Of a stretch of DNA of 64,000 nucleotides, positions 6,278 to 23,276 are shown in pieces (the stretch's first letter is position 1; each line of letters opens with the position of its first letter). Below the pieces are notes generated by a model that was given only the letters and a program-made list of their open reading frames with translations, was not told the origin of the DNA and did not search any database. The stretch lies in the NCBI GenBank assembly GCA_963734545.1, contig CAVTHO010000004.1, positions 608,001-672,000 of the forward strand, read 5' to 3'. Origin of the DNA: an uncultured Spirochaetota bacterium (GTDB taxonomy: Bacteria; Spirochaetota; Spirochaetia; SZUA-6; Fen-1364). Position numbers and translations under genes: made by a program.

Positions 6278-9200
6278 ATGGCAACCGACAAGAGAAAGCA
6301 TACACGTGTCAGTCACCGCGACACGGTGGAGCTCACATCAGGGTCGTACACGTTCTCCGGAACCTCCGTCAACGTCAGTACGAGCGGAATGCAGGTGGTT
6401 GTCCGGCTGCCGGAGTCTCATGATTCGATCCGCAGCATAGCCTTCCAGATCCCCGGCTCCGGCGAACGCGTCGAGCTGCCCTGTCGCCTGATTCGCAATT
6501 CGGAACACGATGTCGAGGGTGACCAGGTCCTGGGCCTCGAATTTCTCTACGAAGCGGATGCCCAGCTCCTGCTCATCGAGAAGTTCATCCAGGATACCCA
6601 GCGCAGCAGGGACGATGCACGCGAGCTTCCCCGGACCTCCTGCCACCTGGACGATGTCACGGTCGAAAACCAGGCGGTCGAGGTTCTCTCCATTGACAAC
6701 CTCTCCACCGAGGGAATGCTTCTCAGCTATCGCGGAAACCTGAGACAGGGCGACCCGCTCACCGTGAGCGTGGGCATTCCGGGGGACGAGCGCCGCCTGC
6801 GCCTGACGGGCGTCGTGGTGTACGTGATGGAGAACGTGCTTCGGGGATCTTTGACGGCGGGCTTGCGGCTGTCGGTCATGAAAGAGACCGAGGAACGCAG
6901 ACTGAGGAATCTCATCGTCGCCTGCTCCTCGGGGAGCGCGATACGCGGCCTGCACCAGCACATTCATTCCAGGACGCTGGAACCCGAGTCCCGAATAACA
7001 GATCCGGTCCTGATCAGCGACATCCTGCAGGCTCTGCAAGTGGAATGCGTGCGCCTGAGCACGCTGGTAGAAGGTTCCTTCACCATCCTCGAGCATGAGG
7101 TTGAGGGCGTTGACCAGGACCTGCGGCGGTTCACGATCAAGCCGGACAGAGCGCTCGTCTCGCGCGCCCTCACACCGGGTGTAGCGGTGTACTTCAGCTT
7201 CTACAGGAACAAGGCCAGCTACTACTTCAAGGCGGAAGCCGCCTCCGCCAGCGACCAGCTCTTGAGCTTCCCTTTTCCCGTCGTCGTGTTCCGCACGGAC
7301 AAGAGATCCTACCAGAGAAAGCCGCTGCAGAACGTCTCTCGCGTGAGGCTGGGGGTCCTCGGAGAGAAGTCGGAAAGGCATACCTTCGAGGGGACATTGA
7401 TCGACATCAGCCGCAGAGGGTTTCTCTGCGAGCTTCATCTCACCGCCGAATCCCAGGCATTATTTCAGAAGGGAAAAGGCATTCATTACACCGTGGACGA
7501 CAGGCTGGGTCTGGGAAGCGAAGGCCAGATCCGACACCTGAAGGCTCTGCCTTCACCCGAAGGCGTTATGCTCCAGGTCGGTGTGGAGGCGGGAATCGGC
7601 AGAAACGCGGTGCGTTCCCGCCGCATCCCGGATGCAGAATGGGAAGAAGGGAACTCGAGCAGGAACTGGCCGCCCGGTCCTGAAAGGCACATCGAGTCCC
7701 ACGTCGTGAGGTTCCCTGACAGGGACGGCCATGAAATCTGCGCCTTCCTCAACGCCACCGAGCTGCGGGTCAAAGCTCCCGTCGTCATCATCCCCTCGGC
7801 ATACGGGAAAAAGAAGGAAGCATTTTCTCCCCTCGTGGCGACCCTGCTCGCGAGCTTCTGGAGCGAGGGAAAGAACATCGTCACGCTGCGCTTCGACGGC
7901 ACCAACCGCCCGGGGGAAAGCTACCAGGAGGAAAGCAATCCACGGCGCGGGTACGAAATGCTCTCCTACAGGATCAGCCAGGGGCTCGGCGATCTCCAGG
8001 CGGCCCTGGACTTCGTACGCGACAACCCGTACTTCATCGCGGAAAAGGTGATCATGGTCTCCTTCAGCATGTCCGCCATTGACGTGCGGCGCCTGCTGAG
8101 CAGGGACGAGGAAAGTGGTGTCGACTACTGGATCAGCGTCATGGGGGTTCCCGCTGCGCAGACCACGCTCCGCAACATCCTGGGCGGCATCGACATCATC
8201 AGCAATTACCGCCTGGGGATTCCGAACGGCATCATCGGGCTGCTGGGGCATCTCATCGACATGGACATCATGGCGGCAGATGTGGTGGACAAGAAATACG
8301 CCTTCCTCACCGACGCGCGCCTGGACATGTCGCGCATCGCCATTCCCGTTCTGTGGATCTACGGCGTGTACGACAAGTGGGTGGAGATGGACGAGGTCAA
8401 GGACCTGATGTCGGTCAAGGCGCGCGGGACACGCGAGACGCTCGAGATCCCCACCGGGCACAACCTGCGCACCAGTGACGACGCCATCCAGACCTTCAAG
8501 CTGATCGCCAGCTCCATCCATGAAAAGCTGTACGGAAAACAGGTCACGGCGCGCGACCCCTGGAAAGAAGAGATGATGCGCGTGCTCACGGAGGAACGCG
8601 AGCGGCTTGAGAACAGGGCGGCTCCCCCGCTCACGGACTACTGGCGCGGGTACCTCCTCGGCAACGAGAGGAACACGGTCGGGTACGATTTCTATCGCCA
8701 TATCCCGGAGTTCAAGTCGTTTTTCAGAACACAGGCAAAATGCCTGTCGCTGGAGGCGGAGGAGATCGTTGCAGACCTGGGCTGCGGCACGGGAATCTTC
8801 CTGGAGGAGCTCCTGGACTTCATTGCGGGCAGGGAAGAGCGAACATCGGTACGAGAGATCACGGCAATCGACCTTATTCCGGACGCTCTGGACAGGACAA
8901 GGGCAAAGTGCGAAAGGATCGTCGCGAGGCACCCCGGCCTGGCTGAAATCGGCTTCCGGTATGTCCAGAAGAACCTGGAGCCCAACAGGCTCATCCCCGT
9001 TGCGCGTTTCATTGAATCAGATGCGCCGTCACTCGAGTCGCTTCGCAACAGGATCGAGGGGCTTTCCAGCAGAGTGCTCGACCGCCTCATCGAGCGAACC
9101 CCACCGGGGCTGCTGGAGGTGATGCGCGGTGCGGTCTCGGAAGAGATGATCTCAGGGCTTGCATCGACCCTGGAGCCGGTGGAGATGCAGACGGTACTGG

Positions 9201-9793
9201 AGTTCAACAGGGCGGCGCGCTTCCTGCAGAATCGGATCGGGCCCCGGGACATCAGGCCGGAGCGCCAGGCCGCGCAGATCGCCCCCGGCAGCCTGCGCAC
9301 GAGCGACCTGTTGTTCGAGACTCTGAGCTTCGACGACTGTGATTCCGTCCTGACCCTGGGGCTGCCTGAGAATCACTTCACAAAGATCGTCGCGAGCCTC
9401 TTCATCTCCTACCTTCGCAATCCAGACTACGCCCTTGCCGAGTGCCATCGCATGCTCACGCCGGGGGGGACCCTCGTGGTGTCCTCCATGAAACCCGACA
9501 GCGATATCTCCACGATATTCACCAACTATATACGAAAGGTGCTGAACCCAAGCTGCCCCGAAGAGGGCGAGAAGGACGACGAAGGCAGCGCCAGCGCTGC
9601 CCGGGCCATGCTCAACGAAGCGGCGAGCCTGTTCGAGCTGGAAGAAGACGGCTTCTTCAAGTTCTACACTGCGGATGAGCTGACAAAGCTGCTTTCCAGC
9701 GCCGGATTCGACGAAATCAGGGTGTTTCCTTCGATGGGAAACCCGGCCCAGGCAAATGTCGCGGTTGCAAGAAAAAGGTTGACAAAATCTTAG
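6278..9793 (+). CDS. Multidomain protein: three PilZ domains, LuxD-like alpha/beta hydrolase (acyl-thioesterase/transferase), class I SAM methyltransferase
   Basis: PilZ motif pairs RKHTR/NVSTSG, RELPR/NLSTEG and RSYQR/DISRRG. Hydrolase motifs SFSMSA, YDKWV, TGHNL. Methyltransferase motifs VADLGCGTG and ECHRMLTPGG. Confidence 0.85.
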   Translation: MATDKRKHTRVSHRDTVELTSGSYTFSGTSVNVSTSGMQVVVRLPESHDSIRSIAFQIPGSGERVELPCRLIRNSEHDVEGDQVLGLEFLYEADAQLLLIEKFIQDTQRSRDDARELPRTSCHLDDVTVENQAVEVLSIDNLSTEGMLLSYRGNLRQGDPLTVSVGIPGDERRLRLTGVVVYVMENVLRGSLTAGLRLSVMKETEERRLRNLIVACSSGSAIRGLHQHIHSRTLEPESRITDPVLISDILQALQVECVRLSTLVEGSFTILEHEVEGVDQDLRRFTIKPDRALVSRALTPGVAVYFSFYRNKASYYFKAEAASASDQLLSFPFPVVVFRTDKRSYQRKPLQNVSRVRLGVLGEKSERHTFEGTLIDISRRGFLCELHLTAESQALFQKGKGIHYTVDDRLGLGSEGQIRHLKALPSPEGVMLQVGVEAGIGRNAVRSRRIPDAEWEEGNSSRNWPPGPERHIESHVVRFPDRDGHEICAFLNATELRVKAPVVIIPSAYGKKKEAFSPLVATLLASFWSEGKNIVTLRFDGTNRPGESYQEESNPRRGYEMLSYRISQGLGDLQAALDFVRDNPYFIAEKVIMVSFSMSAIDVRRLLSRDEESGVDYWISVMGVPAAQTTLRNILGGIDIISNYRLGIPNGIIGLLGHLIDMDIMAADVVDKKYAFLTDARLDMSRIAIPVLWIYGVYDKWVEMDEVKDLMSVKARGTRETLEIPTGHNLRTSDDAIQTFKLIASSIHEKLYGKQVTARDPWKEEMMRVLTEERERLENRAAPPLTDYWRGYLLGNERNTVGYDFYRHIPEFKSFFRTQAKCLSLEAEEIVADLGCGTGIFLEELLDFIAGREERTSVREITAIDLIPDALDRTRAKCERIVARHPGLAEIGFRYVQKNLEPNRLIPVARFIESDAPSLESLRNRIEGLSSRVLDRLIERTPPGLLEVMRGAVSEEMISGLASTLEPVEMQTVLEFNRAARFLQNRIGPRDIRPERQAAQIAPGSLRTSDLLFETLSFDDCDSVLTLGLPENHFTKIVASLFISYLRNPDYALAECHRMLTPGGTLVVSSMKPDSDISTIFTNYIRKVLNPSCPEEGEKDDEGSASAARAMLNEAASLFELEEDGFFKFYTADELTKLLSSAGFDEIRVFPSMGNPAQANVAVARKRLTKS

Positions 9794-9806
9794 ATCCTTC
9801 TACAAT
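9779..9806 (+). promoter_or_regulatory. Near-consensus sigma70 promoter for the ligase-ACP genes
   Basis: TTGACA (9779-9784), N16, TACAAT (9801-9806); AGAGGA RBS before ATG 9845. Confidence 0.65.
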
Positions 9807-9844
9807 AGCCGTTAGTCCAATTAACTCTAATAGAAGAGGAATCT

Positions 9845-11239
9845 ATGATTGGCATAGGGCAAGCCATCAGCGCCTCTCTCCGCGATTGGGGTGATTGGCC
9901 CGCTTTCCTTCAAGTAAGCAAGGCCCGCGGGATCTCTTCCACCTCTTCCGCCGCGTTCTCAGCGAGAATCATCGAGATTGCCCGACAACTCTCGGCCTGG
10001 GGGATTCGGGAAAAGTACCTGGTTCCCCTGTTCCTCGACAACTCAACCGACTTCATCACCATATTCCTGGCCCTGCTCCACATCGGCGCCATCCCTGTCC
10101 TGGTGAAGCGGGAGTACAGGGCCCTGGAGCTGGATGAGATCTTCAGCAATGCCCGTCCCCAGGCCGTGATCACCGAACAGGAGCACATGCGGCTCCTGAC
10201 GCCCTACCTCCGCGACACAATTGTCATTATGCGGTCGGAAAGCCGATTCTCCCTGACGCAATCCGCCGAGGGCCTGCAGTGCCGTGAGGACATCCCGGAT
10301 GACATTGCCTCCATCAACTACACGTATCGAGGATACGGCTACACCCTGGGCGCCATGGTCTCCCACGCTCAGTACCTGCACGGCGCACGGGTGCTGCAGG
10401 ACGGCCTCCAGGCATCAGCGGGAGAAAAGATGCTCATCATCCTGCCGATGGCCCATATCTTCACGATGGTGGGCTGCATTCTCGTCCCTCTGCTCTTCCG
10501 AATGACCAGCGTGATCGTGGACTCCCTGCACCCGCGGCTCCTCTTCCAGTACATCCGCGACTTCCGCATCGAGCACGTGACGTCCGTGCCGGAGATCTAT
10601 GAGCTGCTCTACCGGCTGCGCGACCCTGCCGCGGACCTGTCCTCTCTCAAGGTCTTTGTGTCGGGCGGAAGCCTCCTGACCCCGGACAGCTATTCGACCC
10701 TGACCCGGGCCTTTTCCGTCGACCTGCTTCACGGGTACGGACTGACGGAGTTCACGCCGGTCAGCCGCAACGTGCGCCACGCGGCCAGGCCGGGAACCGT
10801 CGGGCCGCTCTGCGACCAGGTAGAGTGCCGGATAGACCCGGCAGGTCCGGACGGGGCCGGAGAGATCCTGATCAGGACGCCGCACGAGATAGGCAGGTAC
10901 TACCACAGGCCGCGCGAGTCCGACGAAGCGCGGCGCGATGGCTGGTTTCGCACAGGGGATATGGGCCGCATGGACGACGGCCACTTGGTGTTCGTGAAAG
11001 AGCTGAAGAATACGAGAAAAATCAACGGCAACCTCGTGGACATGGAAGAGGTCAGCCGCGCGTTCCGGCTGGACAAGGACGTGGCGGAGGTGCAGGTGGG
11101 GTGGGAAAACAACTCCCTTTTTGCAAACCTTGCATTGAGCCGGCATATCGACTTTGAAGAAAAGACGAAACGGCTGAAGACCTCGCTGCGGGACGTTCTT
11201 GCGGAGTACAAGATACCCCGGCGCTTGAGCGTGTTGTAG
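9845..11239 (+). CDS. Class I adenylate-forming enzyme (acyl-CoA/acyl-ACP ligase-like) with degenerate P-loop
   Basis: Motifs LPMAHIF, VSGG, GYGLTE, GWFRTGDMG and YKIPR. The A3 loop reads YTYRGYGYTLG. Confidence 0.82.
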   Translation: MIGIGQAISASLRDWGDWPAFLQVSKARGISSTSSAAFSARIIEIARQLSAWGIREKYLVPLFLDNSTDFITIFLALLHIGAIPVLVKREYRALELDEIFSNARPQAVITEQEHMRLLTPYLRDTIVIMRSESRFSLTQSAEGLQCREDIPDDIASINYTYRGYGYTLGAMVSHAQYLHGARVLQDGLQASAGEKMLIILPMAHIFTMVGCILVPLLFRMTSVIVDSLHPRLLFQYIRDFRIEHVTSVPEIYELLYRLRDPAADLSSLKVFVSGGSLLTPDSYSTLTRAFSVDLLHGYGLTEFTPVSRNVRHAARPGTVGPLCDQVECRIDPAGPDGAGEILIRTPHEIGRYYHRPRESDEARRDGWFRTGDMGRMDDGHLVFVKELKNTRKINGNLVDMEEVSRAFRLDKDVAEVQVGWENNSLFANLALSRHIDFEEKTKRLKTSLRDVLAEYKIPRRLSVL

Positions 11240-11252
11240 GAGGCACGGAAAC

Positions 11253-11528
11253 ATGGGCAATGTACAGGAATACCAGAGCGCGACGCAATTCAAGAATGCA
11301 ATCAAGCAGATCGTGTCACGGATCTCCCGGATCGATGTGGCGGAGCTGGATGACGGGCTCTTGATACGCGAAGAGCTGGGAATCGACAGCCTGATGGCAA
11401 TGGAGATCATTGCCACCTGCGAAAAGCTGCTGGGTTTTAGGATTGATGAAACACTATTCGCCGACGTGAAGACAGTAGAAGATTTCTTCGAGCTTCTCAT
11501 GACCCTCGTAGGGAGGGTGAATGCGTAA
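11253..11528 (+). CDS. Acyl carrier protein
   Basis: ELGIDSL phosphopantetheine-Ser motif; acidic 91-aa protein; GGAGG RBS. Confidence 0.9.
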   Translation: MGNVQEYQSATQFKNAIKQIVSRISRIDVAELDDGLLIREELGIDSLMAMEIIATCEKLLGFRIDETLFADVKTVEDFFELLMTLVGRVNA

Positions 11529-11705
11529 ATCAGAGCTGCGCATGCTTCCCGCTTCCCCGGCCAGCTCGGTCTTGCTGACGGCCGCAGCGCACGTGCGTTG
11601 CAGCGGGAGTTTTGCCGTAAAAGGGACCGCCTGGCCTGTGACCAGAAGCGCTCCATTGCTATCCTGCGGAAGGCTGGAGCGACTGTCGCAGTCTGGCAAA
11701 CGAGC

Positions 11706-13037
11706 TCAGGCCAGTTGTTTGTATATTTCCTTGAAATAGGCCGACCTGTCCCTGAAAGCCCTCTCGTTGAATATCTGGCGATATGCCCAGATAAAGCCGT
11801 CTTCGAGCTGCTCCTTGGTCATTCCCTTTGGCCGGAAGGTGACGTCGAGGAACGTACAGCGCTCCCAGAACGGCTCGGGGTAGAGGAACCTGTCCTCTTC
11901 CTTCAATCGTTCATACATTCGTGACCCCGGCAGCGGGGTGGCCACCGTCAGCTGGCCGGTCAGCTGGTTTCGGTTCATGAAGTCGACAACGCGGCTGAAC
12001 ACCCCCTGGTTGTCGTGGTCGAGGCCAAAAATAAACGAGCTGAACACCACGATGCCGTGCTCCTGGATGCGGCGCACATGCGCCTCGTAATTCGGAAGCT
12101 GGCGCAGCTTCCAATCATTGCGGTTCATCCCTGATAGATTCTGGGGATCGAGACTTTCGAAACCGATGAGCAGGAAAAGACATCCGGAACGGTAGATCTG
12201 CTGGAGAAGCTCTTCGTCCGCGCCAATGGCGATATCCGTTTGGCCGATCCAACGGACCTTGAGCTCCTCAAGCGCCACCAGAAGCTCCTTGGCGAATCGT
12301 CGATCGGTGAACAGGTTGTCATCAGCGAAGAGGATGAGGCGGTTCGGGACACTGCGTCTTATCGCAGCAATTTCGTTGCGAACCTGAAGTATGGTCTTTT
12401 TGCGCGGCTTCTTTCCGTAGATCCCGGTTACCAGGCAGAACTCGCAATCGTGTGGGCAGCCCCTGCTCGCCTGGACCGGCACAAAGTTGTAGAAGTGTTC
12501 CGGGTCGAGCAGTGTCTTGCTTCCACTCAGAAGATCGTAGCGAGGCAATGGCGATGTGGTGAGATCTATGTAATGACCCGCAGTGTTGCGGTAGATTTGT
12601 TGCGGCTCCCCATTCTGAAAGTCCTGGAGGAAGCGGGGCCAGAGCTCCTCGGCCTCGCCGACGACGACCGTGTCAGCACGGGAAGCGGCCTCTTGTGGCA
12701 TCATGGTGGCGTGACTTCCCCCGATGACAACATAGACGCCCCGGGCCCGGAACTCAGCAGCGATTTGATAGGCACGGACGATAGTCTGAGTCATTGCAGT
12801 GATCCCGACCAGGTCGTAGTTCGCCGTGTAGTCTATCGGAGCAAAGTCTTCGTGGACGATCTCGACGTCGATGGCTGGCGGAGTCAAGCCGGCTATGGTG
12901 AGCAGACTCAAAGACGGCGAGTACCAAGCCTTCAAGAACTTGTGGCACTCACGCAGTGCAAGCGTTATCTTCTCGGTCTTTGCCCAGACATCACGTCTTG
13001 GATTTATCAGGCATATTCGACTCAATGTGCGGCGCAC
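11706..13037 (-). CDS. B12-binding domain radical SAM protein
   Basis: N-terminal cobalamin-binding domain (DLVGIT, GGSHAT, VVVGEAE); ASRGCPHDCEFC CxxxCxxC; DDN; IGFES. Confidence 0.9.
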   Translation of the reverse strand: MRRTLSRICLINPRRDVWAKTEKITLALRECHKFLKAWYSPSLSLLTIAGLTPPAIDVEIVHEDFAPIDYTANYDLVGITAMTQTIVRAYQIAAEFRARGVYVVIGGSHATMMPQEAASRADTVVVGEAEELWPRFLQDFQNGEPQQIYRNTAGHYIDLTTSPLPRYDLLSGSKTLLDPEHFYNFVPVQASRGCPHDCEFCLVTGIYGKKPRKKTILQVRNEIAAIRRSVPNRLILFADDNLFTDRRFAKELLVALEELKVRWIGQTDIAIGADEELLQQIYRSGCLFLLIGFESLDPQNLSGMNRNDWKLRQLPNYEAHVRRIQEHGIVVFSSFIFGLDHDNQGVFSRVVDFMNRNQLTGQLTVATPLPGSRMYERLKEEDRFLYPEPFWERCTFLDVTFRPKGMTKEQLEDGFIWAYRQIFNERAFRDRSAYFKEIYKQLA

Positions 13038-13211
13038 GGGCGCGAGTATATGACGCAGCGATCTCCCGGCGCAAGGGCAATCTCGAGACGCAGCGCGGGA
13101 GGATCCTGACCAGGGGCTTCTGCAAGCGTGCGAAAGGGTATATGATGCTGGAAATGCCCGGCGCGCTCAGTATTTCTGGAAGGTGTGAGAAAATACCATA
13201 GAAAGGCGAGA

Positions 13212-15726
13212 ATGAGCTCAGAGAATCCGGCTCTCTCAAGCGACCTATCCTCTCTCCACGCCGGATTCGAGGCGGAAACCAGGGAAAAAGCGATTCGAGA
13301 CCTTCGTCTCGTCGTAGTGATCGCGGGTGTTTTCTACATGCTCTTCCTCATTCTCGACTATTTCGCGTATCCCGGCCTATTTCTCACTTTTCTGCTGATA
13401 CGGTGCATAGTCGTTTTCGGCAGTGGGCTGATTTTTCTTCTGATGTGGACACCAATGGGCACAGCGCACCCCCGCCTTTTCGCGATGCTTGAATACCTGT
13501 TGTGCGGCTCGGGCATCATGGTGATGGTTCATCTTTCAGGCGGTTACACCAGCTCGTACTATGCCGGCGTCATCCTGGTCCTGCTGTTTTTCATTTCCAT
13601 CCTACCCCTGGACGACAAGAGAACCCTGTTCATATGCGTGATTCTCTACGCAATGTATCTCGTGCCGATCCTCGCGCTGCAGAGGATCGTCCGATTCGAT
13701 ATATTCCTGAACAACAACTTCTTTCTCTTCACCACGATCGCTCTTGTAGTCCTCAGCTCGCAACTTGCCACCCAGATGCGGTTTCGGGAGTTCAGCGGCA
13801 GATTCAATCTTGCCCGCGCAAATGAGGAGCTGAAGAAGCTCGACGTCCTGAAGTCCCAGTTCTTCGCGAACGTGAGCCACGAGGTCCGCACTCCCCTCAC
13901 CTCCATCCTGTCGCCCATCCAGAGCCTGTACCAGGGAGACCTTGGGCCCCTGGTTCCCGAGCATCAAATGCTCATCGGACAGGTCTACCGCAACGCGCTG
14001 AAGCTGCTCGATATGATCAACCAGATGCTCGATTTCTCGAAATTCGAAGCACGCAAGATGCAGCTCCGTCTCAAGCACGTCGACATAGACGAGCTGGCAC
14101 GGGACATCGTGACGACCTTCCAGGACGTCACGGAGCGGAAGGGATTGAAGCTGCGCTACGTGGTTGAGGGGGAATTGCCGCCCGCATACCTGGACGCGGA
14201 AAAGCTCGAGCGAATCCTTACCAATCTGATTCGAAACGCCATCAAGTTCACAGAGAGCGGGTCCATTACCGTCCGGGTCGGCGCCACGCCGGTGAACCGG
14301 TGGCTCGAAGTCAGGGACACCGGCATCGGCATTCCGATGCAGCATCTTGCGAATATCTTCAACAGGTTCCAGCAGGTGGACTCCTCCTCCACGCGAAAAT
14401 ACGAAGGAACGGGGCTCGGTCTCACGATCGTCAAGGAGTCGGTGGAGCTGATGCAGGGGAGCGATCAATGTCCAGAGCGAGGAAAGGCGGGGCACGACGT
14501 TTCGGATCGAGCTGCCGGCAAACCTGGATCAGCTTGCCCCGGACGCGTTCGTCGACAGGAGGAAGGACGCGCAGCGCCGGCAGCCCGCTGATGAGTTCGA
14601 CGGCGACGAAAAAAGAAGGAAAGCGCGGCGTGAATCGGACCTGGCGCGGATCACCGTGGATGATCTTGCCCTTATCGAGAAAGAGACCATCGACCGCGAA
14701 GCAAAGGACGGCCGCGTCCCTGCGCACGATGGGAACGGCAACGCCGACCACATCCTGCTCGTGGAGGACAACGTCGACCTCAGGGCCTACATCAGCAAGA
14801 TGCTCTCCCGGTTCGGGCATGAAGTGGCCACGGCCATCGACGGACTGGACGGCTGGGAGCATGCACAGACGGACCTCCCCGATCTCGTGGTGTCGGACAT
14901 CATGATGCCGCGCATGGACGGCTACGAGCTGGTGGGCCGGATCAAGTCCACTGACACGACCCGGCATATCCCGGTGATCCTGATCACGGCGAAGCCGGAG
15001 ATCGAATCCAAGCTGGAAGGGCTGCAGAAGGGCGCGGACGACTATCTGCCCAAGCCCATCAACATCCGCGAGCTGGACGCCCGCATCCGGAACCTTCTCG
15101 TGACCCGGAACCTCCAGCAGGCGCTGGCGCGTGAAGCCGAGCTGGGCGCGCGGATGGAAGAGCTCAGCATGAGCTTCTCCCAATCACTGGAGATCCGGGA
15201 CTTCAACACTGCCGGCCATTCGCGTGACGTCCTGTACCTGGGCACGATCATCGCGGAAGGAATCGGCATCCCGGTGGACCGCATGCTGAAGGATTCACTT
15301 CTCCTGCACGATATCGGCAAGCTGGGCATACCCGACCGGATTCTCCTCAAGGAGTCGCCGCTGAACGAGGAGGAGTGGAAGATCATGAGAACCCACCCCG
15401 AGCTGGGGGCGAGCCTGCTCGGGCACTTCGAGTCCTATCGGGAGATAAGCAGCATCATCCTCGCGCACCAGGAGCACCTGAACGGCACCGGCTATCCACG
15501 GGGATTGAAGGGCGACGAGATCCCCCTGTTCGCCCGGATCATCGCCATCGCGGATGCCTACCACGCAATGACCAGCAACCGCCCGTACCGCAAGGCGCTC
15601 CCGGCGAGCAGGGCAGTGCTCGAGCTCACGCGGAACCGCGGCACGCAGTTCGATGCCGCGCTCGTCGATGCCTTCATAAAGGGTCTCCTGCAGCGCAGGA
15701 TCATTACGATGGAAGACATCATGTGA
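13212..15726 (+). CDS. Membrane sensor histidine kinase fused to REC and HD-GYP phosphodiesterase domains; frameshift at ~14459
   Basis: About six TM helices, H-box SHEVRTPL, N/G boxes (NAIKFT, DTGIG, GTGLGL). Removing one G from GGGG at 14456-14459 gives MQGAINVQSEERRGTTFRIELP in frame with ORF 14656-15726, which carries REC VSDIMMP, HDIGK and HLNGTGYP. Confidence 0.85.
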
Positions 15727-15765
15727 GCGGGTAGCAATGGCGGAAGCGCCGCCGCGAGAGCGGGC

Positions 15766-16797
15766 TCAGGGCAGCCGGTTGAACCACAGCAGAGAGAGCG
15801 TACCGGCGAGCAGGAGCAGCGCTATTGCGATTGCCGTAAACAGCGCGGTGACCTCGGTCTGGTCCTTCCCCACGATGAGGCGGGTGCTCAGGGATTTGTA
15901 GATTTTTATCAGGTCCCCGGCGTCGTTCGCCTTGAAATACTGCCCGCCCGTGTTCTGCGCAATTCTCTTCAGGCTCGCCTCGTCGAGTCCCACACGGAAC
16001 GAGCGGCCTTCGAAGCCGATGACGTCTCCCCGCGCGCTTCCCAGCCCCACGGTGAATATGCGGATTCCCCGGTTGGCCGCTTTCTCCGCCGCGTCCAGCG
16101 GATCGGGTCCCTGGTTGTTCTGTCCGTCGCTGAGCAGGACGATGACCGCGGAATTGTTCGAACCGGGCGCAACCGGATCCGGTTCAGGCGGTGACGGCGG
16201 TGCCGGCAGCAGCGGATCACTCGGAGCCGACAGGGAGGCAGGGGTCTGACCTGGCTGCTCATCCTCCAGAATGGCGTCCAAGGCGACGAGGATCCCGCTT
16301 CCGATGGCCGTTCCCCGCTGGAGCATGAGACGCTCGATCGCGCCGCGTATGTCCTCCCGGGCGGTGGTCGGTGCCTGTACCAGTGCCGCTGTCCCGCTGA
16401 AAGCGGCGACCCCGATCCGCACCCGGGGCGGCTGCTTGTTTACGAATTCGAGCGCCGCCTGTTTTGCCGCCTCCATCCGGGTCGGCTTGATGTCCTGCGC
16501 GCGCATGCTTCCCGAGATGTCCATGGCAAGGATCACCGTGCCCCTGTTCGAGGGCAGGGAGATGGTGGCAAGCGGGCGCGCCAACGCGAAGATCATGACT
16601 GTCAGCGAGACCAGGAAAAGCAGGGCCGGGATGTGCCGGCGAAAGCCGGGGCCCCGGCCAAGGGCATCCTTCACGAGCATCAGGCTCGCATAGCGGATTG
16701 CGAACTTCTGCCGGCGTCTCTGCGCCCAGAGGTAGAAAAGAACGAGCACCGGCACGAGCAGCAGGAACCAGAGCATCGAGGTCCATTGAAATGTCAT
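15766..16797 (-). CDS. VWA domain membrane protein (BatA-like)
   Basis: MIDAS motif DISGSM, LLSDG, N- and C-terminal TM helices. Confidence 0.88.
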   Translation of the reverse strand: MTFQWTSMLWFLLLVPVLVLFYLWAQRRRQKFAIRYASLMLVKDALGRGPGFRRHIPALLFLVSLTVMIFALARPLATISLPSNRGTVILAMDISGSMRAQDIKPTRMEAAKQAALEFVNKQPPRVRIGVAAFSGTAALVQAPTTAREDIRGAIERLMLQRGTAIGSGILVALDAILEDEQPGQTPASLSAPSDPLLPAPPSPPEPDPVAPGSNNSAVIVLLSDGQNNQGPDPLDAAEKAANRGIRIFTVGLGSARGDVIGFEGRSFRVGLDEASLKRIAQNTGGQYFKANDAGDLIKIYKSLSTRLIVGKDQTEVTALFTAIAIALLLLAGTLSLLWFNRLP

Positions 16798-17726
16798 GAC
16801 ACTTCCCGCAGGCCGTGCGCGGCACGGGAGGCCGGTGCCGCGCGGCGCTGTTTGCGCTCAATGGCGAACCGGACGATTTCCCTCGCCATGTCGCCCTCCG
16901 TGGACAATGAGAGGAGCTCGACGCCCCGACGGGCGAGCAGGCTGTCGAGCTCCTCACGCCTCTTGCGGGCGGCCGCGGCGAACCGCCTCCTGAAACCGTG
17001 GTCGTGCGTGTCGAGGAAGAGCTGCTCGCCCGTTTCCGCGTCCTCGAACACGATGGCGCCCACGTCCGGGAGCTCCGACTCCCGCGGGTCGGAGAGCCGC
17101 ACCCCGAGGATCTCGTGTCTGCGGGTGAGCATGTCCAGCGGCTTGTCCCAGCCCGTCACGCTGAGAAAGTCGGACACGACGAACAGCAGGGAACGCCGGC
17201 CGATGATGCGGAGGGCCGATTCGAGGAGCAGGGAGAGGTCGGTCTGGGGCGCGCGCTGAAGCCGGGGCTGACCCTGAAGCTCCTGGATGAGGCGCAGGAC
17301 ATGGGTCCGCCCGCCCCGCGCGGGAATGGTGCGCGCGGGCGCGCCGCTGAAGATCAGCGCCCCTACCCGGTTTCCGTGCCGCGTGAGCAGCCGCGCAAGG
17401 ACGCCGACGAAGTCGACGAGCAGCTTCCTCTTGTCCGTGGCAACCGTGCCGAAGTCCACCGAGGGGCTCATGTCGAGGAGGAACCACGCGGTGACCTCCC
17501 TGTCCTCCATGTACTGCCGCACGTAGGGGGTCTGCAGCCGCGCTGTCACGTACCAGTCGATCGTCCGCACGTCGTCGGTGAGCTGGTATTCGCGCAGGTC
17601 CGCCAGCTCGAGCCCGAAGCCGCGGAACAAGGTCCGATAGTTGCCCTGCAGGATCCCGTCGAGCCGGCGGATCACCGTCCAGTCCAGCCGCTGGAGAATC
17701 CTCTCGGGGTCAGAGGGCTGCGGCAT
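16794..17726 (-). CDS. DUF58 domain protein
   Basis: G..LADLREYQ..DDVRTIDW.VTAR motif; lies within the MoxR operon. Confidence 0.9.
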   Translation of the reverse strand: MPQPSDPERILQRLDWTVIRRLDGILQGNYRTLFRGFGLELADLREYQLTDDVRTIDWYVTARLQTPYVRQYMEDREVTAWFLLDMSPSVDFGTVATDKRKLLVDFVGVLARLLTRHGNRVGALIFSGAPARTIPARGGRTHVLRLIQELQGQPRLQRAPQTDLSLLLESALRIIGRRSLLFVVSDFLSVTGWDKPLDMLTRRHEILGVRLSDPRESELPDVGAIVFEDAETGEQLFLDTHDHGFRRRFAAAARKRREELDSLLARRGVELLSLSTEGDMAREIVRFAIERKQRRAAPASRAAHGLREVS

Positions 17727-18729
17727 GACTCTGCAGCGCCTGGGCGGGTGCGGGAACCGCCTGCATCACCTTCTGGATGATCGCATCGGTGCTCACCCCG
17801 TCGGAGAGGGCCTCGTAGGACGGGATGATGCGATGACGCATCACGTCGTGCACCATGTCGACGATGTCCTGGGGAATGACGTACGATCTCCCGCGCACGA
17901 AGGCCAGCGCGCGTCCGGCAATGACGAGATTGATCGAGGCGCGGGGGCTCGCGCCGTATACGATGTACTTCGCCACTTCCGGCACTCCATGCCTGTCCGG
18001 GCTGCGCGTGGCGGCGGCAAGCCGCACGGCGTACTGCACGAGCAGGGGGTCCACGAACACGCCCTCGCAGGCCTGGCGGAGCTGCAGGATCTGCTCGGTG
18101 GTCACGACCGCGGCCGGCTGGGCCAGCGCGGTCGTCATCCTCTGCACGATGACGAACTCCTCCGGCTCGCTGGGGTAGTCCACGAGGACTTTCATCATGA
18201 AGCGATCGACCTGCGCCTCGGGAAGCGGATAGGTCCCGTCCGTCTCGATGGGGTTCTGCGTTGCCATGACGAGGAAGGGTTCCGCGACCTTGAACGTCTC
18301 CCCGCCGATGGTCACCTGGCGCTCCTGCATGACCTCCAGGAGCGCGCTCTGCACCTTGGCAGGGGCGCGATTGATCTCGTCAGCGAGGAGCAGGTTGGCG
18401 AAAACGGGACCGAGGGACGTGCTGAACTCACCGGTCCGCTGATTGTAGATGCGTGTGCCCACCAGGTCCGCGGGAACGAGATCCGGTGTGAACTGGATCC
18501 TCTTGAATACCCCGTTCATCGCCGACGCGAGGGTCTTGACCGTCAGGGTCTTTGCCAGTCCCGGCACGCCCTCCACGAGCAGGTGGCCTTGAGAAAGGAG
18601 CGCGACGAGCACGCGCTCCAGAAGGTGGTCCTGCCCGACGATCACCTTCTTCACCTCGTAGAGTATCTTCTCCATGAGCTGTGCCTGCTCGAGGTAAGCT
18701 CCTTCCGCCCCAATGTGCATGCTTTCCAT
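17710..18729 (-). CDS. moxR: MoxR family AAA+ ATPase
   Basis: Motifs GVPGLAKT, RIQFTPDL, DEINRAPAKVQSALLE, ATQNP. Confidence 0.93.
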   Translation of the reverse strand: MESMHIGAEGAYLEQAQLMEKILYEVKKVIVGQDHLLERVLVALLSQGHLLVEGVPGLAKTLTVKTLASAMNGVFKRIQFTPDLVPADLVGTRIYNQRTGEFSTSLGPVFANLLLADEINRAPAKVQSALLEVMQERQVTIGGETFKVAEPFLVMATQNPIETDGTYPLPEAQVDRFMMKVLVDYPSEPEEFVIVQRMTTALAQPAAVVTTEQILQLRQACEGVFVDPLLVQYAVRLAAATRSPDRHGVPEVAKYIVYGASPRASINLVIAGRALAFVRGRSYVIPQDIVDMVHDVMRHRIIPSYEALSDGVSTDAIIQKVMQAVPAPAQALQSHAAAL

Positions 18730-18761
18730 AATGGTTCTCCCTTTCGCGGTACTCCGTGAAG

Positions 18762-19613
18762 CTAAACGGGGGGTGAGCCGACCACGCCGCCCGCCGTGTC
18801 GATGGGGACGGCGAAGCCGATCCCGATGAATACGTCCTGGTTTGTCGGATTCAAGAGCGATGTGACGATGCCCACCACTTCCCCGTTCCTGTTGACCAGA
18901 GGCCCCCCGGAGTTGCCGGGGTTCACCGCGGCATCGAACTGGATGAGGTTTTTCAGCGTGGCCCCTGTCTCACGGGAGGTGTACTGCCTGCCCAGGCCGG
19001 AGACGACACCGTCGGAGGTCGAAAAGAAGACCCCGAACGGGTTGCCCACCGCGATCACCTCGTCCCCGACGTGCAGGGAGGCCGAGCTCACGAGGGTCGC
19101 GGGCTTCAGGTCATCCGGCACCTTCATGGCGCTCAGCACCGCAAGGTCGTTCTCCGGCTGCCGCACCATCACCTGCGCATCCGACTCCGTGCCGTCCGCG
19201 AACACGACCTTCACCGAGGCGGCGTCCTTCACGACGTGAAGGCAGGTCAGGATGATGCCCGTGTCCACGACCACGACGCCGGCGCCCAGCGACGCGCGGG
19301 GCTTCCCGTCTCCGGGCACGACGGCCTCCACCGCCACGACGGACGGCAGAATGACGTCATAGGCGACCGAGGCATTCGAGGGTTTGGGCGGCGCGTTCTC
19401 GAGAGAGCGGTCCACCGCCGCGTCGATGTCTCTCTGGGTGAGTCGTTGCGGGACCGGCCGGAGCGCGTTGTAGACGAGGAGGGCAACGAGCGTGATGATG
19501 ATCTGGGCGGCTATGAGGAAAAGCGTCCGATGGCCCTGGTACGCGCCCCTGAGCCATTGACGGACAAGCTGCCAGTCTGAAGGCGGGCTCGCCTTAGGAT
19601 CTTCTATATACAC
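18762..19613 (-). CDS. Membrane-anchored trypsin-like (S1C/HtrA-type) serine protease without PDZ domain
   Basis: Catalytic triad motifs TCLHVV, DLAVL and NPGNSGGPL; one TM helix. Confidence 0.88.
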   Translation of the reverse strand: MYIEDPKASPPSDWQLVRQWLRGAYQGHRTLFLIAAQIIITLVALLVYNALRPVPQRLTQRDIDAAVDRSLENAPPKPSNASVAYDVILPSVVAVEAVVPGDGKPRASLGAGVVVVDTGIILTCLHVVKDAASVKVVFADGTESDAQVMVRQPENDLAVLSAMKVPDDLKPATLVSSASLHVGDEVIAVGNPFGVFFSTSDGVVSGLGRQYTSRETGATLKNLIQFDAAVNPGNSGGPLVNRNGEVVGIVTSLLNPTNQDVFIGIGFAVPIDTAGGVVGSPPV

Positions 19614-19666
19614 AGATGAAGATACTGCGATGCGGCGGCCGGGGGAAATAATATCCGGTTATCTTC

Positions 19667-22000
19667 TCAGAAGCGCACGCCCAGGCCCAGCATCACAGTG
19701 GGCTGAAATACCGTCTTGGAGGGATTGGCGCCGCTGATTCCGTCGGAGAGATAGGGGACCAGGACGCGGACGGCCGTGCCCGCTGTCAATGACACGCCGC
19801 CAAAAAGCTCCAGCCCGATCGCGGCGCGCAGGCGGGGAAACAACGCGCCGACCGTGGAGGCGCCGAGGTCCGGGAATCCCAGTCGCTCAGTCACCATGGA
19901 AAGCTCGTAGTCCAGGTAGAAGGGATTGATACTGGAGCGTCCTCCCAGCCCCAGGCCAAGGGACCAGAGCGAAGGGTCAGGCCCCGGCTTCCACCCCACG
20001 CTGAAAATGGTGTACAGATACCGGGTGCCGAGGGACAGCGCCGCCGTGGTCGTCCCTGCCATGTCCACCCACAGGTCCACACTGTGGTGTCCCTTGGCCT
20101 CGATGGAAACCAGGCCGACAGGGACCCCCTCGATCTCCTCGGAAATGTTGAGCACGCCGACCTGCGTGCCGGAAACGTGCCGGGCGATGTTGACGACGCC
20201 GACCTGCGCGCCGCTGACTGTATCCGCCACGTTCACAACGCTGATCTGGGGGCCCGTCAGGGTCCGGCCCCAGTTGAATACGCCGGCCACCTGGGCGCCG
20301 CTCACATCGACCCCTGCCCAGTTGAAAAGTCCCGCCACCTGCGCGCCCCGTGCCGCGCCGAGGGACACGTTGCCCAGCCCGGCAAGCTGCGCGCCGTTGA
20401 GGCCGCCGCTGACATTGACCAGCCCCGCTGCCTGGACGTACCGGGCTTCGCCGCCAAGGTAGTTGACCAATCCCGCTGCCTGGAAGCCGTTGAGCCTGCC
20501 CAGGACGACGTTTGCAAGACCGGCACCCTGAAAACCGGTCACGTCATGGGATTCGAGGTTTGCCAGTCCGCCGATCTCGAATCCGCGCGAGTAGGATGAC
20601 GAGCCGATCAGGAGGTTGATCCCCACGACATGATCGGCGCTCGAGGAGAAGAGCCCGTTCGACACGTCCGGCAGCAGGCTAAAGGCGATCGGGCTTGGCC
20701 GCGGAGGGCCGCTCGCCCGGGGGGCTGGTTCGGACCCGTCCGCCGGAGCTTCCTCTGCCGGCGGGCCGACCTGCTGGGTGGACGGGCCGATAGAGGTCGC
20801 TGCCGCAGCCGCCGAGATGGCAGCGCCGACTGCTCCGCCGATGGCGGCACCGACCGCGGCGCCTATGGCCGCCCCCGGTTCTGTTCGCGTGACCACGGGC
20901 GGCATGCCCTGGTCGTAGGGCGGCTGGCTCCCGGCCTGATCGCCGCGGGCCGTGGCTTTGTCCAGCGGCACGGCGCGCAGCATGGCCATGGTAAGAGTGC
21001 CGCGCTGCCGCGTCGTGACACGCACGTCCCCCGCAAAACGAGCCCCCTTCTTGTCGAGCACGACGGAGTAGACACCGGGCTCGAGACCCAGCTCCGTTTT
21101 CTGGCCTTCCACCTTGTTCAGCTCGACGGCGAGCGTGCCTTGATCGTCGCGGAAGTACAGTCTCCCCCCGATGTTTTCCGCCACGGTGAGCCCCGCGGCG
21201 GAAGACCTCAGGTCGGTGAGCACGAGGTCACCCGATCCTGTCAGGTTAATGTCATACGCGGCATGCTGGGGCCCGTACTCGGTCTTTTCCGTTGAAGCGA
21301 GGGTTTCCTGGAAAGCATAGGCATAGGCCTCGTTGAGGGTCACGACTCCGTCCCCTGCCGTGTCCGCGGCGCCGCGCAGACCCGATATCAGGTAGTGCGT
21401 GAAGAAGGACGCGCCGATCCTGTCCGATTCCTGCGCCGCCTCCTCTGCCGAGGCCGAGGTGAGGTACGCGTGCCCCGTCATGTCCGAGGAGGCGTCGAAA
21501 AGGAACGCGGGACGCGCAACGCCTCCCTTTGCGCGCGTGAGGGACCCTGATGAGCACGAGTCGAGGATGGCCACCTTGACGTCCGCCGGTATGTCGTTGA
21601 TGTCGCGTCGAAACTGCTCCCACGTGTAGCGGTCCTTGCCCAGTATGAGCCCGTCGTCGTCGGAATGGCCCGAATAGTAAATGACGAGCTCGCGGCGTTC
21701 ATCCATCTCCCTCGGGGATTTGACCATCTGGCCAACCCTTCCCAGGGCATCCTCGAAGCGTGAGAGGTCGGGGCTCAAGGTCAGGACCAGGTCCTGCGCG
21801 CGGACACCGCCCAGGTCCTGGAGCACGGCCGCAAAGGACCGCGCATCTGTTTCCGCGTATTTCAGACGGATGAGGTTTTCACCGCCATAGTTGGAGCCGA
21901 CGACCATTGCGAAACGCCGGAGGGGCACCGGCGAGTCGGCTCCCACAGCCCAGGCGACGGAGCCGAGCAGGAGGATGAATAACGCGCGCTTCACATTCAT
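19667..22000 (-). CDS. Exported caspase-family (C14) peptidase with G-x-Q beta-repeat region and a C-terminal beta-barrel-like domain
   Basis: Signal peptide; YYSGHS and ILDSCSSG His/Cys dyad; repeats of type GxQxAGLxN; ends in GLGVRF. Confidence 0.85.
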   Translation of the reverse strand: MNVKRALFILLLGSVAWAVGADSPVPLRRFAMVVGSNYGGENLIRLKYAETDARSFAAVLQDLGGVRAQDLVLTLSPDLSRFEDALGRVGQMVKSPREMDERRELVIYYSGHSDDDGLILGKDRYTWEQFRRDINDIPADVKVAILDSCSSGSLTRAKGGVARPAFLFDASSDMTGHAYLTSASAEEAAQESDRIGASFFTHYLISGLRGAADTAGDGVVTLNEAYAYAFQETLASTEKTEYGPQHAAYDINLTGSGDLVLTDLRSSAAGLTVAENIGGRLYFRDDQGTLAVELNKVEGQKTELGLEPGVYSVVLDKKGARFAGDVRVTTRQRGTLTMAMLRAVPLDKATARGDQAGSQPPYDQGMPPVVTRTEPGAAIGAAVGAAIGGAVGAAISAAAAATSIGPSTQQVGPPAEEAPADGSEPAPRASGPPRPSPIAFSLLPDVSNGLFSSSADHVVGINLLIGSSSYSRGFEIGGLANLESHDVTGFQGAGLANVVLGRLNGFQAAGLVNYLGGEARYVQAAGLVNVSGGLNGAQLAGLGNVSLGAARGAQVAGLFNWAGVDVSGAQVAGVFNWGRTLTGPQISVVNVADTVSGAQVGVVNIARHVSGTQVGVLNISEEIEGVPVGLVSIEAKGHHSVDLWVDMAGTTTAALSLGTRYLYTIFSVGWKPGPDPSLWSLGLGLGGRSSINPFYLDYELSMVTERLGFPDLGASTVGALFPRLRAAIGLELFGGVSLTAGTAVRVLVPYLSDGISGANPSKTVFQPTVMLGLGVRF

Positions 22001-22011
22001 GACCGCAATCC

Positions 22012-22800
22012 CTACTTCTTCACGAGAAGCGAGTACTGTCCCAGGCCGCCGGGAAGACCAAGGCCCTCCCGCTCAGCGGCCCCGGGTCGGGCGGCCAGGG
22101 CACGCGCTGCCCGGTCCACGTCTCCGACCTCGAAGGGAGAAGCCGCATACACAAGAAAGAATCGCTCGAACCGGGGGGCATCGTCCAGCTCATACGCGGA
22201 CGGAAGGACCACCTGGCCCTGCAGGTCCAGGGGAGGCGCGGCGCGGGACCCTCCCCGATAGCCCGCCGGCACGTGCCACGTGACGGCGCCTCGGCCGTCC
22301 ACGGAGAGAATGACCCCGTATTTGGCCTCTCCCGCCGTGTAGCTGATCTGCAGGACATCGGCCCGCCGGGCCGACGCGCCGGGGCGCAGCTCCTCCGCGC
22401 CGCCGGCGGGCGTCTTGCGGAAAAGATTGAGATGCGTCGTGAGGCCCTTGAGCCTCGTCTCATTCGGGACGATCCGCTCCCGGACCACGACGAGAGAAAG
22501 GACAAGAATCACCATTGCGGCGGCCGGCAGCGCCCAAGCCATGGTCTGCGCCCTGCGCGGCCGCGCCGCCCTTCCGCCCGCCTGGAGCAGTCTCTCCTTG
22601 ATTGCAGGCACGATGCGTTCCGCCGGATAGTCCGCCATGATCTCCCGGTTGGACTGGGTGATCGCGGCCAGTCTCTCTCTCAGTGTTTCGTCTCGCTCCA
22701 GCTCGTCGCGCACCATCCGCTCCTGGCCCGAAGAGAGCTCCCCTAGAATATACTGCTCCAGCAGCAGGTCCGATACAGTCTGTTTCTGCGGCATCTTCAT
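22012..22800 (-). CDS. Putative anti-sigma factor (ActD-like single-pass membrane protein)
   Basis: GGAGGAGG RBS; N-terminal LLEQYILGEL helix, central TM, RLKG motif and an extracytoplasmic domain; translationally coupled to the ECF sigma gene. Confidence 0.72.
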   Translation of the reverse strand: MKMPQKQTVSDLLLEQYILGELSSGQERMVRDELERDETLRERLAAITQSNREIMADYPAERIVPAIKERLLQAGGRAARPRRAQTMAWALPAAAMVILVLSLVVVRERIVPNETRLKGLTTHLNLFRKTPAGGAEELRPGASARRADVLQISYTAGEAKYGVILSVDGRGAVTWHVPAGYRGGSRAAPPLDLQGQVVLPSAYELDDAPRFERFFLVYAASPFEVGDVDRAARALAARPGAAEREGLGLPGGLGQYSLLVKK

Positions 22801-23276
22801 GCCTCCTCCAGAGCGCGAGTGCGCTCCTTGAGCTGGCGCAGGCGCTTGCGCACCCCGGACACGGACAGGCCGACGTGGCCCGCCACCTCTTCGAGCGTCA
22901 TGCCGTCCACGTAGTGCATCACCGCCATGGTGCGCGTCGAGGCGCGCTCCCGCCCGAAGATGCGATCCAGGACGTGCCGGTCGAGGGCCCTCGACTCCAC
23001 GTCCTCGGCGGATGCGATGCGCTCCAGGGCTGCTTCCCCCGCCGACTGCGGGCGCCTGCGCGCCGTGCGCATCATGTTCAGGCAGACATTTGTGGCGATA
23101 GTGTAGAGCATGCTCGACGGTGCCTTGTCCGTGAGCCTTTCCTGGAAGCGCAGAAGCTTCACAAAGGTCTCCTGGGCGGCATCCATTGCCTGTTCCTCGT
23201 CGACGAGAAGGGCACGGCATCTGCGCAGGACCATGGGTCCGTACTTCCTGTAGAGGGCATCGACGTCCAGCGCCAC
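22797..23276 (-). CDS. ECF RNA polymerase sigma factor
   Basis: Region 2 (AMDAAQETFVKL, LYTIATNVCLN) and region 4 (GMTLEEVA..VGLSVSGVRKRL); probable GTG start at 23276. Confidence 0.92.
   Translation of the reverse strand: MALDVDALYRKYGPMVLRRCRALLVDEEQAMDAAQETFVKLLRFQERLTDKAPSSMLYTIATNVCLNMMRTARRRPQSAGEAALERIASAEDVESRALDRHVLDRIFGRERASTRTMAVMHYVDGMTLEEVAGHVGLSVSGVRKRLRQLKERTRALEEA

Follow-up and report, generated by a model that had tools for sequence, protein, structure and literature searches.

A candidate c-di-GMP-gated acyl-carrier module with its own sensor phosphodiesterase in an uncultured Spirochaetota bacterium

The known outputs of cyclic di-GMP (c-di-GMP) are mostly motility, adhesins, polysaccharide synthases and transcription. 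Canonical PilZ domains, which bind this messenger, are defined by the motifs RxxxR and [D/N]xSxxG. In the Phc system of Ralstonia, the methyltransferase PhcB makes 3-hydroxy fatty-acid methyl esters that are sensed through PhcS/PhcR, and in the BioC/BioH pair the carboxyl of a diacid bound to an acyl carrier protein (ACP) is methylated and an esterase removes the methyl group later. In the Rpf/diffusible signal factor (DSF) system of Xanthomonas (RpfF, RpfB, RpfC, RpfG), as set out in an HD-GYP survey, a membrane sensor kinase relays to a receiver (REC)-HD-GYP protein beside acyl-ACP-related genes and an adenylate-forming ligase (10.1101/2021.11.05.467447). Here we describe a locus in a 64,000-nucleotide stretch (the window) of contig CAVTHO010000004.1 from an uncultured Spirochaetota bacterium of peat. 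It comprises a PilZ-hydrolase-methyltransferase fusion (P), an adenylate-forming ligase (L), an ACP (A), a B12-binding radical S-adenosylmethionine (SAM) enzyme (R) and a sensor kinase joined to an HD-GYP output (K). An earlier reading made from the sequence alone (the sequence-only reading) had placed five contiguous genes at 6278-15726. All five are present; they are contiguous yet not co-directional, because R lies on the minus strand, and the frame of K is split in this assembly.

The domain content, the conservation of catalytic and binding motifs, a LuxD-like fold and gene linkage across lineages form the observed basis of our interpretation. On this basis we lean towards reading P as an acyl-tailoring enzyme that depends on an ACP and is gated by c-di-GMP, with a dedicated MASE8-like sensor phosphodiesterase as its partner.

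The open reading frame (ORF), the Pfam matches and three RxxxR...[D/N]xSxxG pairs agree with the earlier description of P as a fusion of PilZ domains, a LuxD-like hydrolase and a SAM methyltransferase. PilZ (PF07238) matched P at 5e-19 (69 bits against a cut-off of 22.5; Pfam), with two stretches passing alone, and the PilZ-like model TIGR02266 matched the second PilZ domain (aa 139-213) below its cut-off. Motif conservation was assessed in an alignment of 45 complete, distinct P proteins. In PilZ domain 1, R6, R10, S34 and G37 occurred in 42 of the 42 aligned rows, and three further rows were gapped N-terminally. R115, R119 and G146 of PilZ domain 2 were found in 45/45, with S143 essentially invariant; in PilZ domain 3, R343, R347, S378 and G381 were present in 45/45, as was D/N376. 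By these motifs, P carries three canonical PilZ domains that look functional and are predicted to bind c-di-GMP. Two P homologues (P0073 and P0159) have an extra N-terminal REC domain ahead of the PilZ domains, so that the enzyme may receive phosphorelay input directly in some lineages. Shorter P variants have one PilZ domain, REC plus PilZ, or no N-terminal domain.

The hydrolase part of P matched Acyl_transf_2 (PF02273, the LuxD family) with 21.6 bits against a cut-off of 20.3 (E 1.5e-4; Pfam). Its proposed triad was conserved, with S597 in 43 of the 45 proteins and both D699 and H728 in all of them. An AlphaFold model of P residues 475-1171, made with 67 sequences, reached a predicted local distance difference test score (pLDDT) of 94.3 and a predicted template modelling score (pTM) of 0.92. 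The label "LuxD-like" holds structurally: the top PDB match of the hydrolase model in Foldseek was 1THT, the LuxD myristoyl-ACP thioesterase of Vibrio harveyi (E 4.9e-14, TMt 0.82), followed by the thioesterase DcsB and feruloyl/cinnamoyl esterases. By sequence only, the match of P to 1THT had an E of 0.0096. Because P scored 20 bits against the LuxD equivalog NF052253, whose cut-off is 420 (NCBIfam), the hydrolase is LuxD-like and no LuxD orthologue.

Matches of P to SAM methyltransferases (Pfam Methyltransf_11/23/25) are split between aa 825-880 and 1023-1145. Motif I, DxGxGxG (D833, G835, G837, G839), was present in 45/45 P proteins, and the domain modelled alone gave a pLDDT of 92.9. A PDB sequence search with the methyltransferase domain returned E values of at least 0.0035 throughout, and the fold search singled out no specific family; P also matched BioC at 5.6e-7, with 29.6 bits against a cut-off of 184.95 (NCBIfam).

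Related loci were taken from the genomes of the phylum (one per species), from named genome contigs and from a metagenome scan. The 90 loci with P fell into 76 distinct groups after near-identical loci were merged. Matches to the hydrolase-methyltransferase part of P came from 8 of the 401 phylum genomes and 2 of the 153 genera: the window genome and seven genomes of one other genus. All seven of the latter carry P, L, A, R and K co-directionally; their P is ~41-43% identical, and the genes that flank the module in the window are absent. The named genome contigs contributed four loci from metagenome-assembled genomes (MAGs) of Spirochaetia/Spirochaetota, and the metagenome scan 79 more.

The co-location proposed in the sequence-only reading recurs in these loci. 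Among the 76 distinct ones, L follows P directly and co-directionally in 57 of the 59 that could be assessed, A is present in 41/44, and the kinase and the REC-HD-GYP part are each present in 30/32; the two loci missing L, the kinase and REC-HD-GYP are the same pair each time (L083 and L085). ORF clustering over all loci gave P in 89, L in 72, K in 50, R in 48 and A in 30 loci (with a 90-aa ORF cut-off for A), and the next most widespread family in at most 11. The flanks differ by lineage, and those checked are housekeeping genes (RuvA/B/C, YebC, queuosine synthesis, signal peptidase, XseA, inositol monophosphatase). No further conserved partner (exporter, phosphopantetheinyl transferase, cyclase) emerged from the ORF clustering of the loci, the orphan loci L083 and L085 being the exceptions. 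Judged from this gene content, P, L, A and K are a conserved four-gene core unit, with R as a facultative fifth member. Other bacteria of sediments have the module too.

The P homologues of the orphan loci (L083:9986-13453; L085:9881-13474, with L086) are 31-32% identical, stand without L, A and K, and have Asp for Ser at the nucleophile (FDMA). Upstream of them lie two divergent genes for cNMP-binding GGDEF cyclases, and downstream an Sfp-type phosphopantetheinyl transferase, so that c-di-GMP and carrier-protein themes recur there with other wiring.

In a wider search, 201 P homologues were found at E<=1e-5 among 7,999 candidates scored; representatives at 50% identity numbered 736 at E<=1e-3 and 335 at E<=1e-30. 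Their source names included Spirochaetia, Spirochaetales, Desulfobacula, Desulfotignum and Thermodesulfobacteriota, with Acidobacteriota for a more distant cluster, and their database names were generic ("PilZ domain-containing protein", "UbiE / pimeloyl-ACP methyl ester carboxylesterase"). One of them, P0118, bears the name "Desulfobacula sp." with no MAG tag, so that a carrier that can be cultured may exist.

The description of K as a multi-transmembrane (TM) kinase-REC-HD-GYP fusion stood for its domains and failed for its reading frame. About six hydrophobic segments at the N-terminus are followed by HisKA, HATPase_c, REC and HD-GYP (HD_5), and the frame is broken in the assembly. The frame 13185-14591 exits HATPase near 14456, and the protein resumes in the frame of 14656-15726; in the alignment, the window has one extra base near 14461 relative to L003 and L002. 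K is a single continuous protein in the relatives L002, L003 and L013-L019. We also compared Logan contigs from four metagenome runs of three studies over 11200-15800, at identities of at least 90%. Contigs of a close relative have A, a minus-strand R and K in the same arrangement as the window, and the sole contig that spans the frameshift site (a related peat-metagenome contig, depth 10.6) is without one letter at 14461. K is read as intact in that close relative's contig, and the frameshift would be either an assembly error or private to the window's strain.

Pfam gave no match to MASE8 (PF20968) in the window's own sensor. Two K orthologues matched it at E 2.5e-4 and 0.011 (21.7 and 16.3 bits against a cut-off of 26.2), and the Atlas feature score of the K sensor was 0.98, to clusters with MASE8 in 11-40% of their members. 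We call the sensor "MASE8-like" only. The HD-GYP domain has the motifs LHDIGK and HQEHLNGTGYP and is preceded by REC, and the HD and GYP regular expressions both matched in 34 of 37 K orthologues. The host can make c-di-GMP, since its genome has 13 GGDEF matches. In a Desulfobacula-like variant (L044:7817-11545, L039:9867-13592), whose P shares 83% identity with a protein that bears the name Desulfobacula sp., a double kinase of ~880 aa (TM-HisKA-HATPase-REC-HisKA-HATPase) is followed by a separate REC-HD-GYP gene. By domain content, the HD-GYP output is conserved even where the kinase fusion is not.

We propose the following mechanism. L would adenylate a carboxylic acid and load it onto the dedicated ACP, A. 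R, where present, would act on the tethered group, with C-methylation as the likeliest change. The LuxD-like Ser-Asp-His domain of P would remove the acyl group from the ACP, by hydrolysis or transfer, and the fused SAM methyltransferase would methylate the product or an intermediate. The three PilZ domains would make this terminal step c-di-GMP-dependent. The membrane sensor kinase of K, by phosphorelay to its own REC, would switch the HD-GYP phosphodiesterase; K would lower c-di-GMP and so set the level that P reads. In this scheme we infer the direction of acyl flow and the order of the steps, the chemistry and the methylated atom, the sign of c-di-GMP control and the ligand of K. The c-di-GMP wiring is well founded on sequence; a lipid methyl-ester signal sensed by its own kinase is an unproven hypothesis.

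Several points weigh against this interpretation. Every step of the mechanism is drawn from sequence and predicted structure. The loci were all found through P and many of them are kin, so that the co-occurrence counts overstate independent support. All NCBIfam matches of P, L, A and R are under their curated cut-offs, and for this reason no step can be named by orthology. L is of the ANL adenylate-forming family (AMP-binding, 164.8 bits against a cut-off of 29.9; Pfam), and its nearest solved relatives, malonyl-CoA synthetase, feruloyl-CoA synthetase and 4-coumarate ligase (E ~1e-25), are CoA ligases for malonate, ferulate or coumarate and not proven ACP loaders. Because of these relatives and the NCBIfam matches under cut-off, the "lipid" substrate of the sequence-only reading is an assumption, which the ligase does not bear out. 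L also stops at position 501 of 531 of its best NCBIfam model (~30 short) and at 478 of 506 of chain 4GXQ, a shortening that may affect adenylation. The L orthologues, with a median length of 464 aa, are likewise ~30 positions short of full-length models (the C-terminal end corresponds to window 11150-11239); the missing positions are presumably the site of the A10 lysine motif of ANL enzymes, and the L family may lack this motif. The fold matches of the methyltransferase in Foldseek are to generic class I enzymes (CmoA, Coq5, CouO/NovO, RebM, MitM; TMt <=0.68) of mixed C-, O-, N- and S-specificities, and so give no backing to the methyl-ester product that had been suggested. Finally, K is frameshifted in the window assembly, so this copy may be broken.

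Pfam supported the earlier identities of the ligase (AMP-binding), the ACP (PP-binding) and the B12 radical SAM enzyme. For R, the B12-binding match was 8.5e-12 (45.4 bits against 32.1) and the Radical_SAM match 1e-10 (42.5 against 29.5); with these two domains and CxxxCxxC (as CPHDCEFC), R is a class B radical SAM enzyme. Its nearest solved relative is AprD4 (2e-10), and its NCBIfam matches (HpnJ, ApyD, BchE, PhpK, lipid-associated B12 radical SAM) are all far under cut-off. R had been seen as a fixed pathway step; it is present in 18 and absent in 6 of the 24 fully assessable loci, which does not fit that role.

The position of R varies as well. Of the loci with R, 36 have it downstream and co-directional, either in the A-K or the L-A interval or ahead of L, and 6 have it upstream of P in the opposite orientation; the window's placement (downstream, opposite strand) was seen in none of these. 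The R tree has two clades, the smaller of which holds 9 rows, including the window's R (type A), with 100% SH-aLRT support. The nearest relative of the window's R is that of L069 (68%), a locus whose P is only 52% identical, and the window's closest P relatives, L003 (89%) and L002 (74%), bear an R of the other clade (42-43% identity). L056, with no R, and L059, with a type A R, are otherwise close. From the variety of positions, the two clades, the mismatch between R and P, and the difference between L056 and L059, we infer that R has been repeatedly swapped, moved, gained or lost within a stable module and is a facultative accessory cassette.

An invertible element was considered for R and rejected: among the 25 longest of 35 inverted-repeat pairs none convincingly brackets the gene, so there is no sign of a switchable inversion. 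An assembly artefact as the source of the inverted R was ruled out by the Logan contigs, which in all four runs bridge A-R-K alike. In the R-K intergenic region (13083-13150), related contigs of all four runs have ~52 extra letters, and 3 inserted letters behind 13150.

The AT-richer segment reported at 11.2-13.8 kb is real, though modest: the GC fraction is 0.525-0.577 (windows 11201-13800) against ~0.59-0.65 for the remainder of the cluster and 0.63-0.70 outside it. The segment coincides with the ACP, R and K-sensor stretch. Apart from R, the K sensor is the most variable protein segment of the module. Identity between the window and L003 is 89% in P, 80% in L, 64% in A, 43% in R and 53% in the sensor, against 93% in both the kinase core and REC-HD-GYP. 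For L002 the values are 74% (P), 76% (L), 74% (A), 42% (R), 70% (sensor), 90% (kinase core) and 87% (REC-HD-GYP), and for L027, which has no R, they are 79% (P), 81% (L), 78% (sensor), 92% (kinase core) and 95% (REC-HD-GYP).

This hypervariable centre between close relatives resembles, by analogy, polymorphic signal/receptor loci, and it recalls a loop of autoinduction. The product of P, L and A (with or without R) would be a diffusible hydrophobic signal bound by the membrane domain of K, and the resulting drop in c-di-GMP would feed back on P in a quorum-sensing-like manner. We regard this as a tentative possibility. K accompanies the biosynthetic genes in 30 of the 32 loci, and its sensor, wholly intramembrane and MASE8-like, would suit a hydrophobic ligand. 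Over the same 42 rows, the number of R-state changes required was 8 with the sensor tree, against 12 with the tree of the kinase core and 10 with that of the ligase. However, the window's sensor, which accompanies a type A R, is nearest to those of L027 (no R, 78%) and L002/L088 (type B, 70-71%), and not to those of the type A loci L024 (46%) and L069 (43%), and the sensors of L056 (no R) and L059 (type A) are near-identical. Similar sensors thus accompany different R states: the sensor is not adapted to the activity of R, and the co-variation between sensor and R gives a weak signal that we did not count as support. The earlier claim that the kinase senses the product is not supported, as sensor likeness follows neither the presence nor the type of R, although this is a weak negative test. 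Membrane sensor domains generally outpace kinase cores in evolution, and such fast evolution is an adequate alternative explanation of the variable sensor. Further against autoinduction, ORF clustering of the loci showed no export gene conserved in the module, and a methyl-ester product is not indicated by the fold of the methyltransferase. In a bolder form, the module would be a new cell-cell or self-signalling circuit, in which a c-di-GMP-gated enzyme releases a small molecule, built on a carrier protein and diversified by radical SAM chemistry, for the circuit's own membrane kinase/HD-GYP protein to read, and in which a swappable R and a fast-evolving ACP and sensor give strain-specific dialects; we consider this form doubtful.

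The module might instead serve the homeostasis of envelope lipids, supplying an acyl group, modified by methylation or branching, for a lipid of the membrane or envelope while K senses the state of the membrane instead of a signal and tunes the modification through c-di-GMP. The relatives of R include HpnJ (4.6e-26), "lipid biosynthesis B12-binding/radical SAM protein" (2.9e-18) and HpnR (1.6e-12), all under cut-off; LuxD-type enzymes act on fatty acyl-ACP, the K sensor lies wholly within the membrane, and housekeeping genes surround the module. On the other hand, ORF clustering found no lipid-acceptor acyltransferase, flippase or glycerolipid gene conserved with it, and L is not clearly of the fatty-acid type. 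The distribution is also narrow, at 8 of 401 phylum genomes and 2 of 153 genera, so that an accessory trait fits better than core lipid homeostasis. Overall, we find the envelope-lipid explanation unlikely.

Decay of the module in this genome, with a real frameshift in K and an inverted, foreign-looking R as the mark of a locus rearranged out of function, is highly improbable. For decay speak the one extra base by comparison with L003 and L002, the strand of R (all 36 R genes that lie downstream elsewhere are co-directional) and the lower GC over 11.2-13.8 kb. Against it, P, L, A and R are intact ORFs that keep all their motifs, and a split histidine kinase and REC-HD-GYP is a natural variant elsewhere. 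Related contigs of four runs and three studies (at least 90% identity) also share the A-R(minus)-K arrangement, and the one spanning 14461 is without the extra base, so that the arrangement is a trait of a living lineage and the frameshift may be an assembly error.

The coordinates of the module and of its domains are given in Table 1.

Table 1. Genes and domains of the module, with window positions, strand and basis of assignment
Feature	Position	Strand	Basis
P: PilZ x3 + LuxD-like alpha/beta hydrolase + SAM methyltransferase, 1171 aa	6278-9793	+	ORF, Pfam
PilZ domain 1 of P, aa 4-104, R6-x3-R10 + N32-x-S34-x2-G37	6287-6589	+	Pfam stretch 4-104
PilZ domain 2 of P, aa ~113-213, R115-x3-R119 + N141-x-S143-x2-G146	6614-6916	+	TIGR02266 + motifs
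PilZ domain 3 of P, aa ~340-450, R343-x3-R347 + D376-x-S378-x2-G381	7295-7627	+	motifs; limits estimated
LuxD-like alpha/beta hydrolase of P, acyl-ACP thioesterase/acyltransferase type, proposed triad S597/D699/H728	7715-8557	+	AlphaFold, Foldseek, alignment
Helical linker + class I SAM methyltransferase of P, ~140-residue helical insertion, motif I D833-x-G-C-G-T-G	8558-9793	+	Pfam, model
L: adenylate-forming ligase, 464 aa, presumed ACP loader	9845-11239	+	Pfam AMP-binding 3.4e-48
A: acyl carrier protein, 91 aa, DSL serine motif	11253-11528	+	Pfam PP-binding 2.9e-11
R: B12-binding radical SAM enzyme, 443 aa, CPHDCEFC, DUF4070-like tail, type A	11706-13037	-	Pfam
K: MASE8-like six-TM sensor, HisKA, HATPase, REC, HD-GYP	13185-15726	+	Pfam + frames
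Membrane sensor domain of K, MASE8-like	13185-13850	+	orthologue matches, Atlas features
REC of K	14752-15090	+	Pfam Response_reg 1.4e-27, 96.5 bits
HD-GYP phosphodiesterase output of K	15211-15663	+	Pfam HD_5 1.6e-35, 122.8 bits

A scan for promoters and terminators showed no excess over shuffled sequences (3 vs 2.4 and 10 vs 6.8). A match of 11/12 to the sigma-70 promoter consensus lies at 9779-9806, at the P-L gap of 51 nucleotides; the overall counts of such matches were no higher than in shuffles. Beyond K, the minus strand at 15766-23220 carries an operon of BatA/VWA, DUF58 and MoxR AAA+ genes and, past this operon, genes for a trypsin-like peptidase, for a caspase-domain protein of 777 aa (Peptidase_C14) and for a protein of 402 aa without a Pfam match; the whole group is syntenic in L003 and L004. 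The MAG contig of L004 has many frame breaks in conserved genes (amidohydrolase, FGGY kinase, DUF4097, ACP, kinase, DUF58, trypsin-like), which are probably assembly error rather than decay.

Compared with known systems, the hydrolase of P shares with LuxD of Vibrio harveyi (1THT) its fold, a Ser-Asp-His triad and the Pfam family Acyl_transf_2, and the triad of LuxD has a similar spacing. It differs in that identity to P is 15-16%, the hydrolase is fused to PilZ domains and a methyltransferase, and there is no luxCE/luxAB. The BioC/BioH pair likewise combines a SAM methyltransferase and an alpha/beta hydrolase on ACP-bound substrates, and a malonyl-CoA synthetase is the nearest solved relative of L; in contrast, the BioC score of P is far under cut-off, biotin gene context is lacking, and the PilZ domains and the kinase have no known counterpart there. 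Like Phc, the module has a SAM methyltransferase and a sensor kinase in one signalling locus; Phc is not known to have an HD-GYP, PilZ, ACP or ligase component, and the methyltransferase of P matches generic class I enzymes only.

The literature search found no description of the module's architecture, in line with the sequence-only reading, which knew of no such system; the supplements of PilZ or HD-GYP surveys might list it, and the available parts of the PilZ survey (10.1101/814665) and the HD-GYP survey (10.1101/2021.11.05.467447) do not mention it. BcsA (cellulose) and Alg44 (alginate) offer the likeness of a canonical PilZ domain (RxxxR, [D/N]xSxxG) on a biosynthetic protein with c-di-GMP-dependent output (10.1101/814665). 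These act in polysaccharide polymerisation and have one PilZ domain, whereas the module has carrier-protein acyl chemistry, three PilZ domains and its own phosphodiesterase.

Against the Rpf system, the module is without the RpfF crotonase: none of the six window proteins gave a Pfam match to crotonase, and the conserved families are only P, L, A, R and K. In the module the kinase and HD-GYP mostly form one protein, the sensor is MASE8-like, and there are a dedicated ACP and a predicted PilZ-gated enzyme, neither of which is known from Rpf. We consider the module a new variation on known c-di-GMP circuitry, in which an Rpf-like relay would be joined to a PilZ-gated acyl-carrier enzyme. If this is true, small-molecule or lipid synthesis joins the directly gated outputs of c-di-GMP, and, with sensor, phosphodiesterase, receptor and target packed into four or five genes, the module offers a clean and portable case for "local" c-di-GMP signalling.

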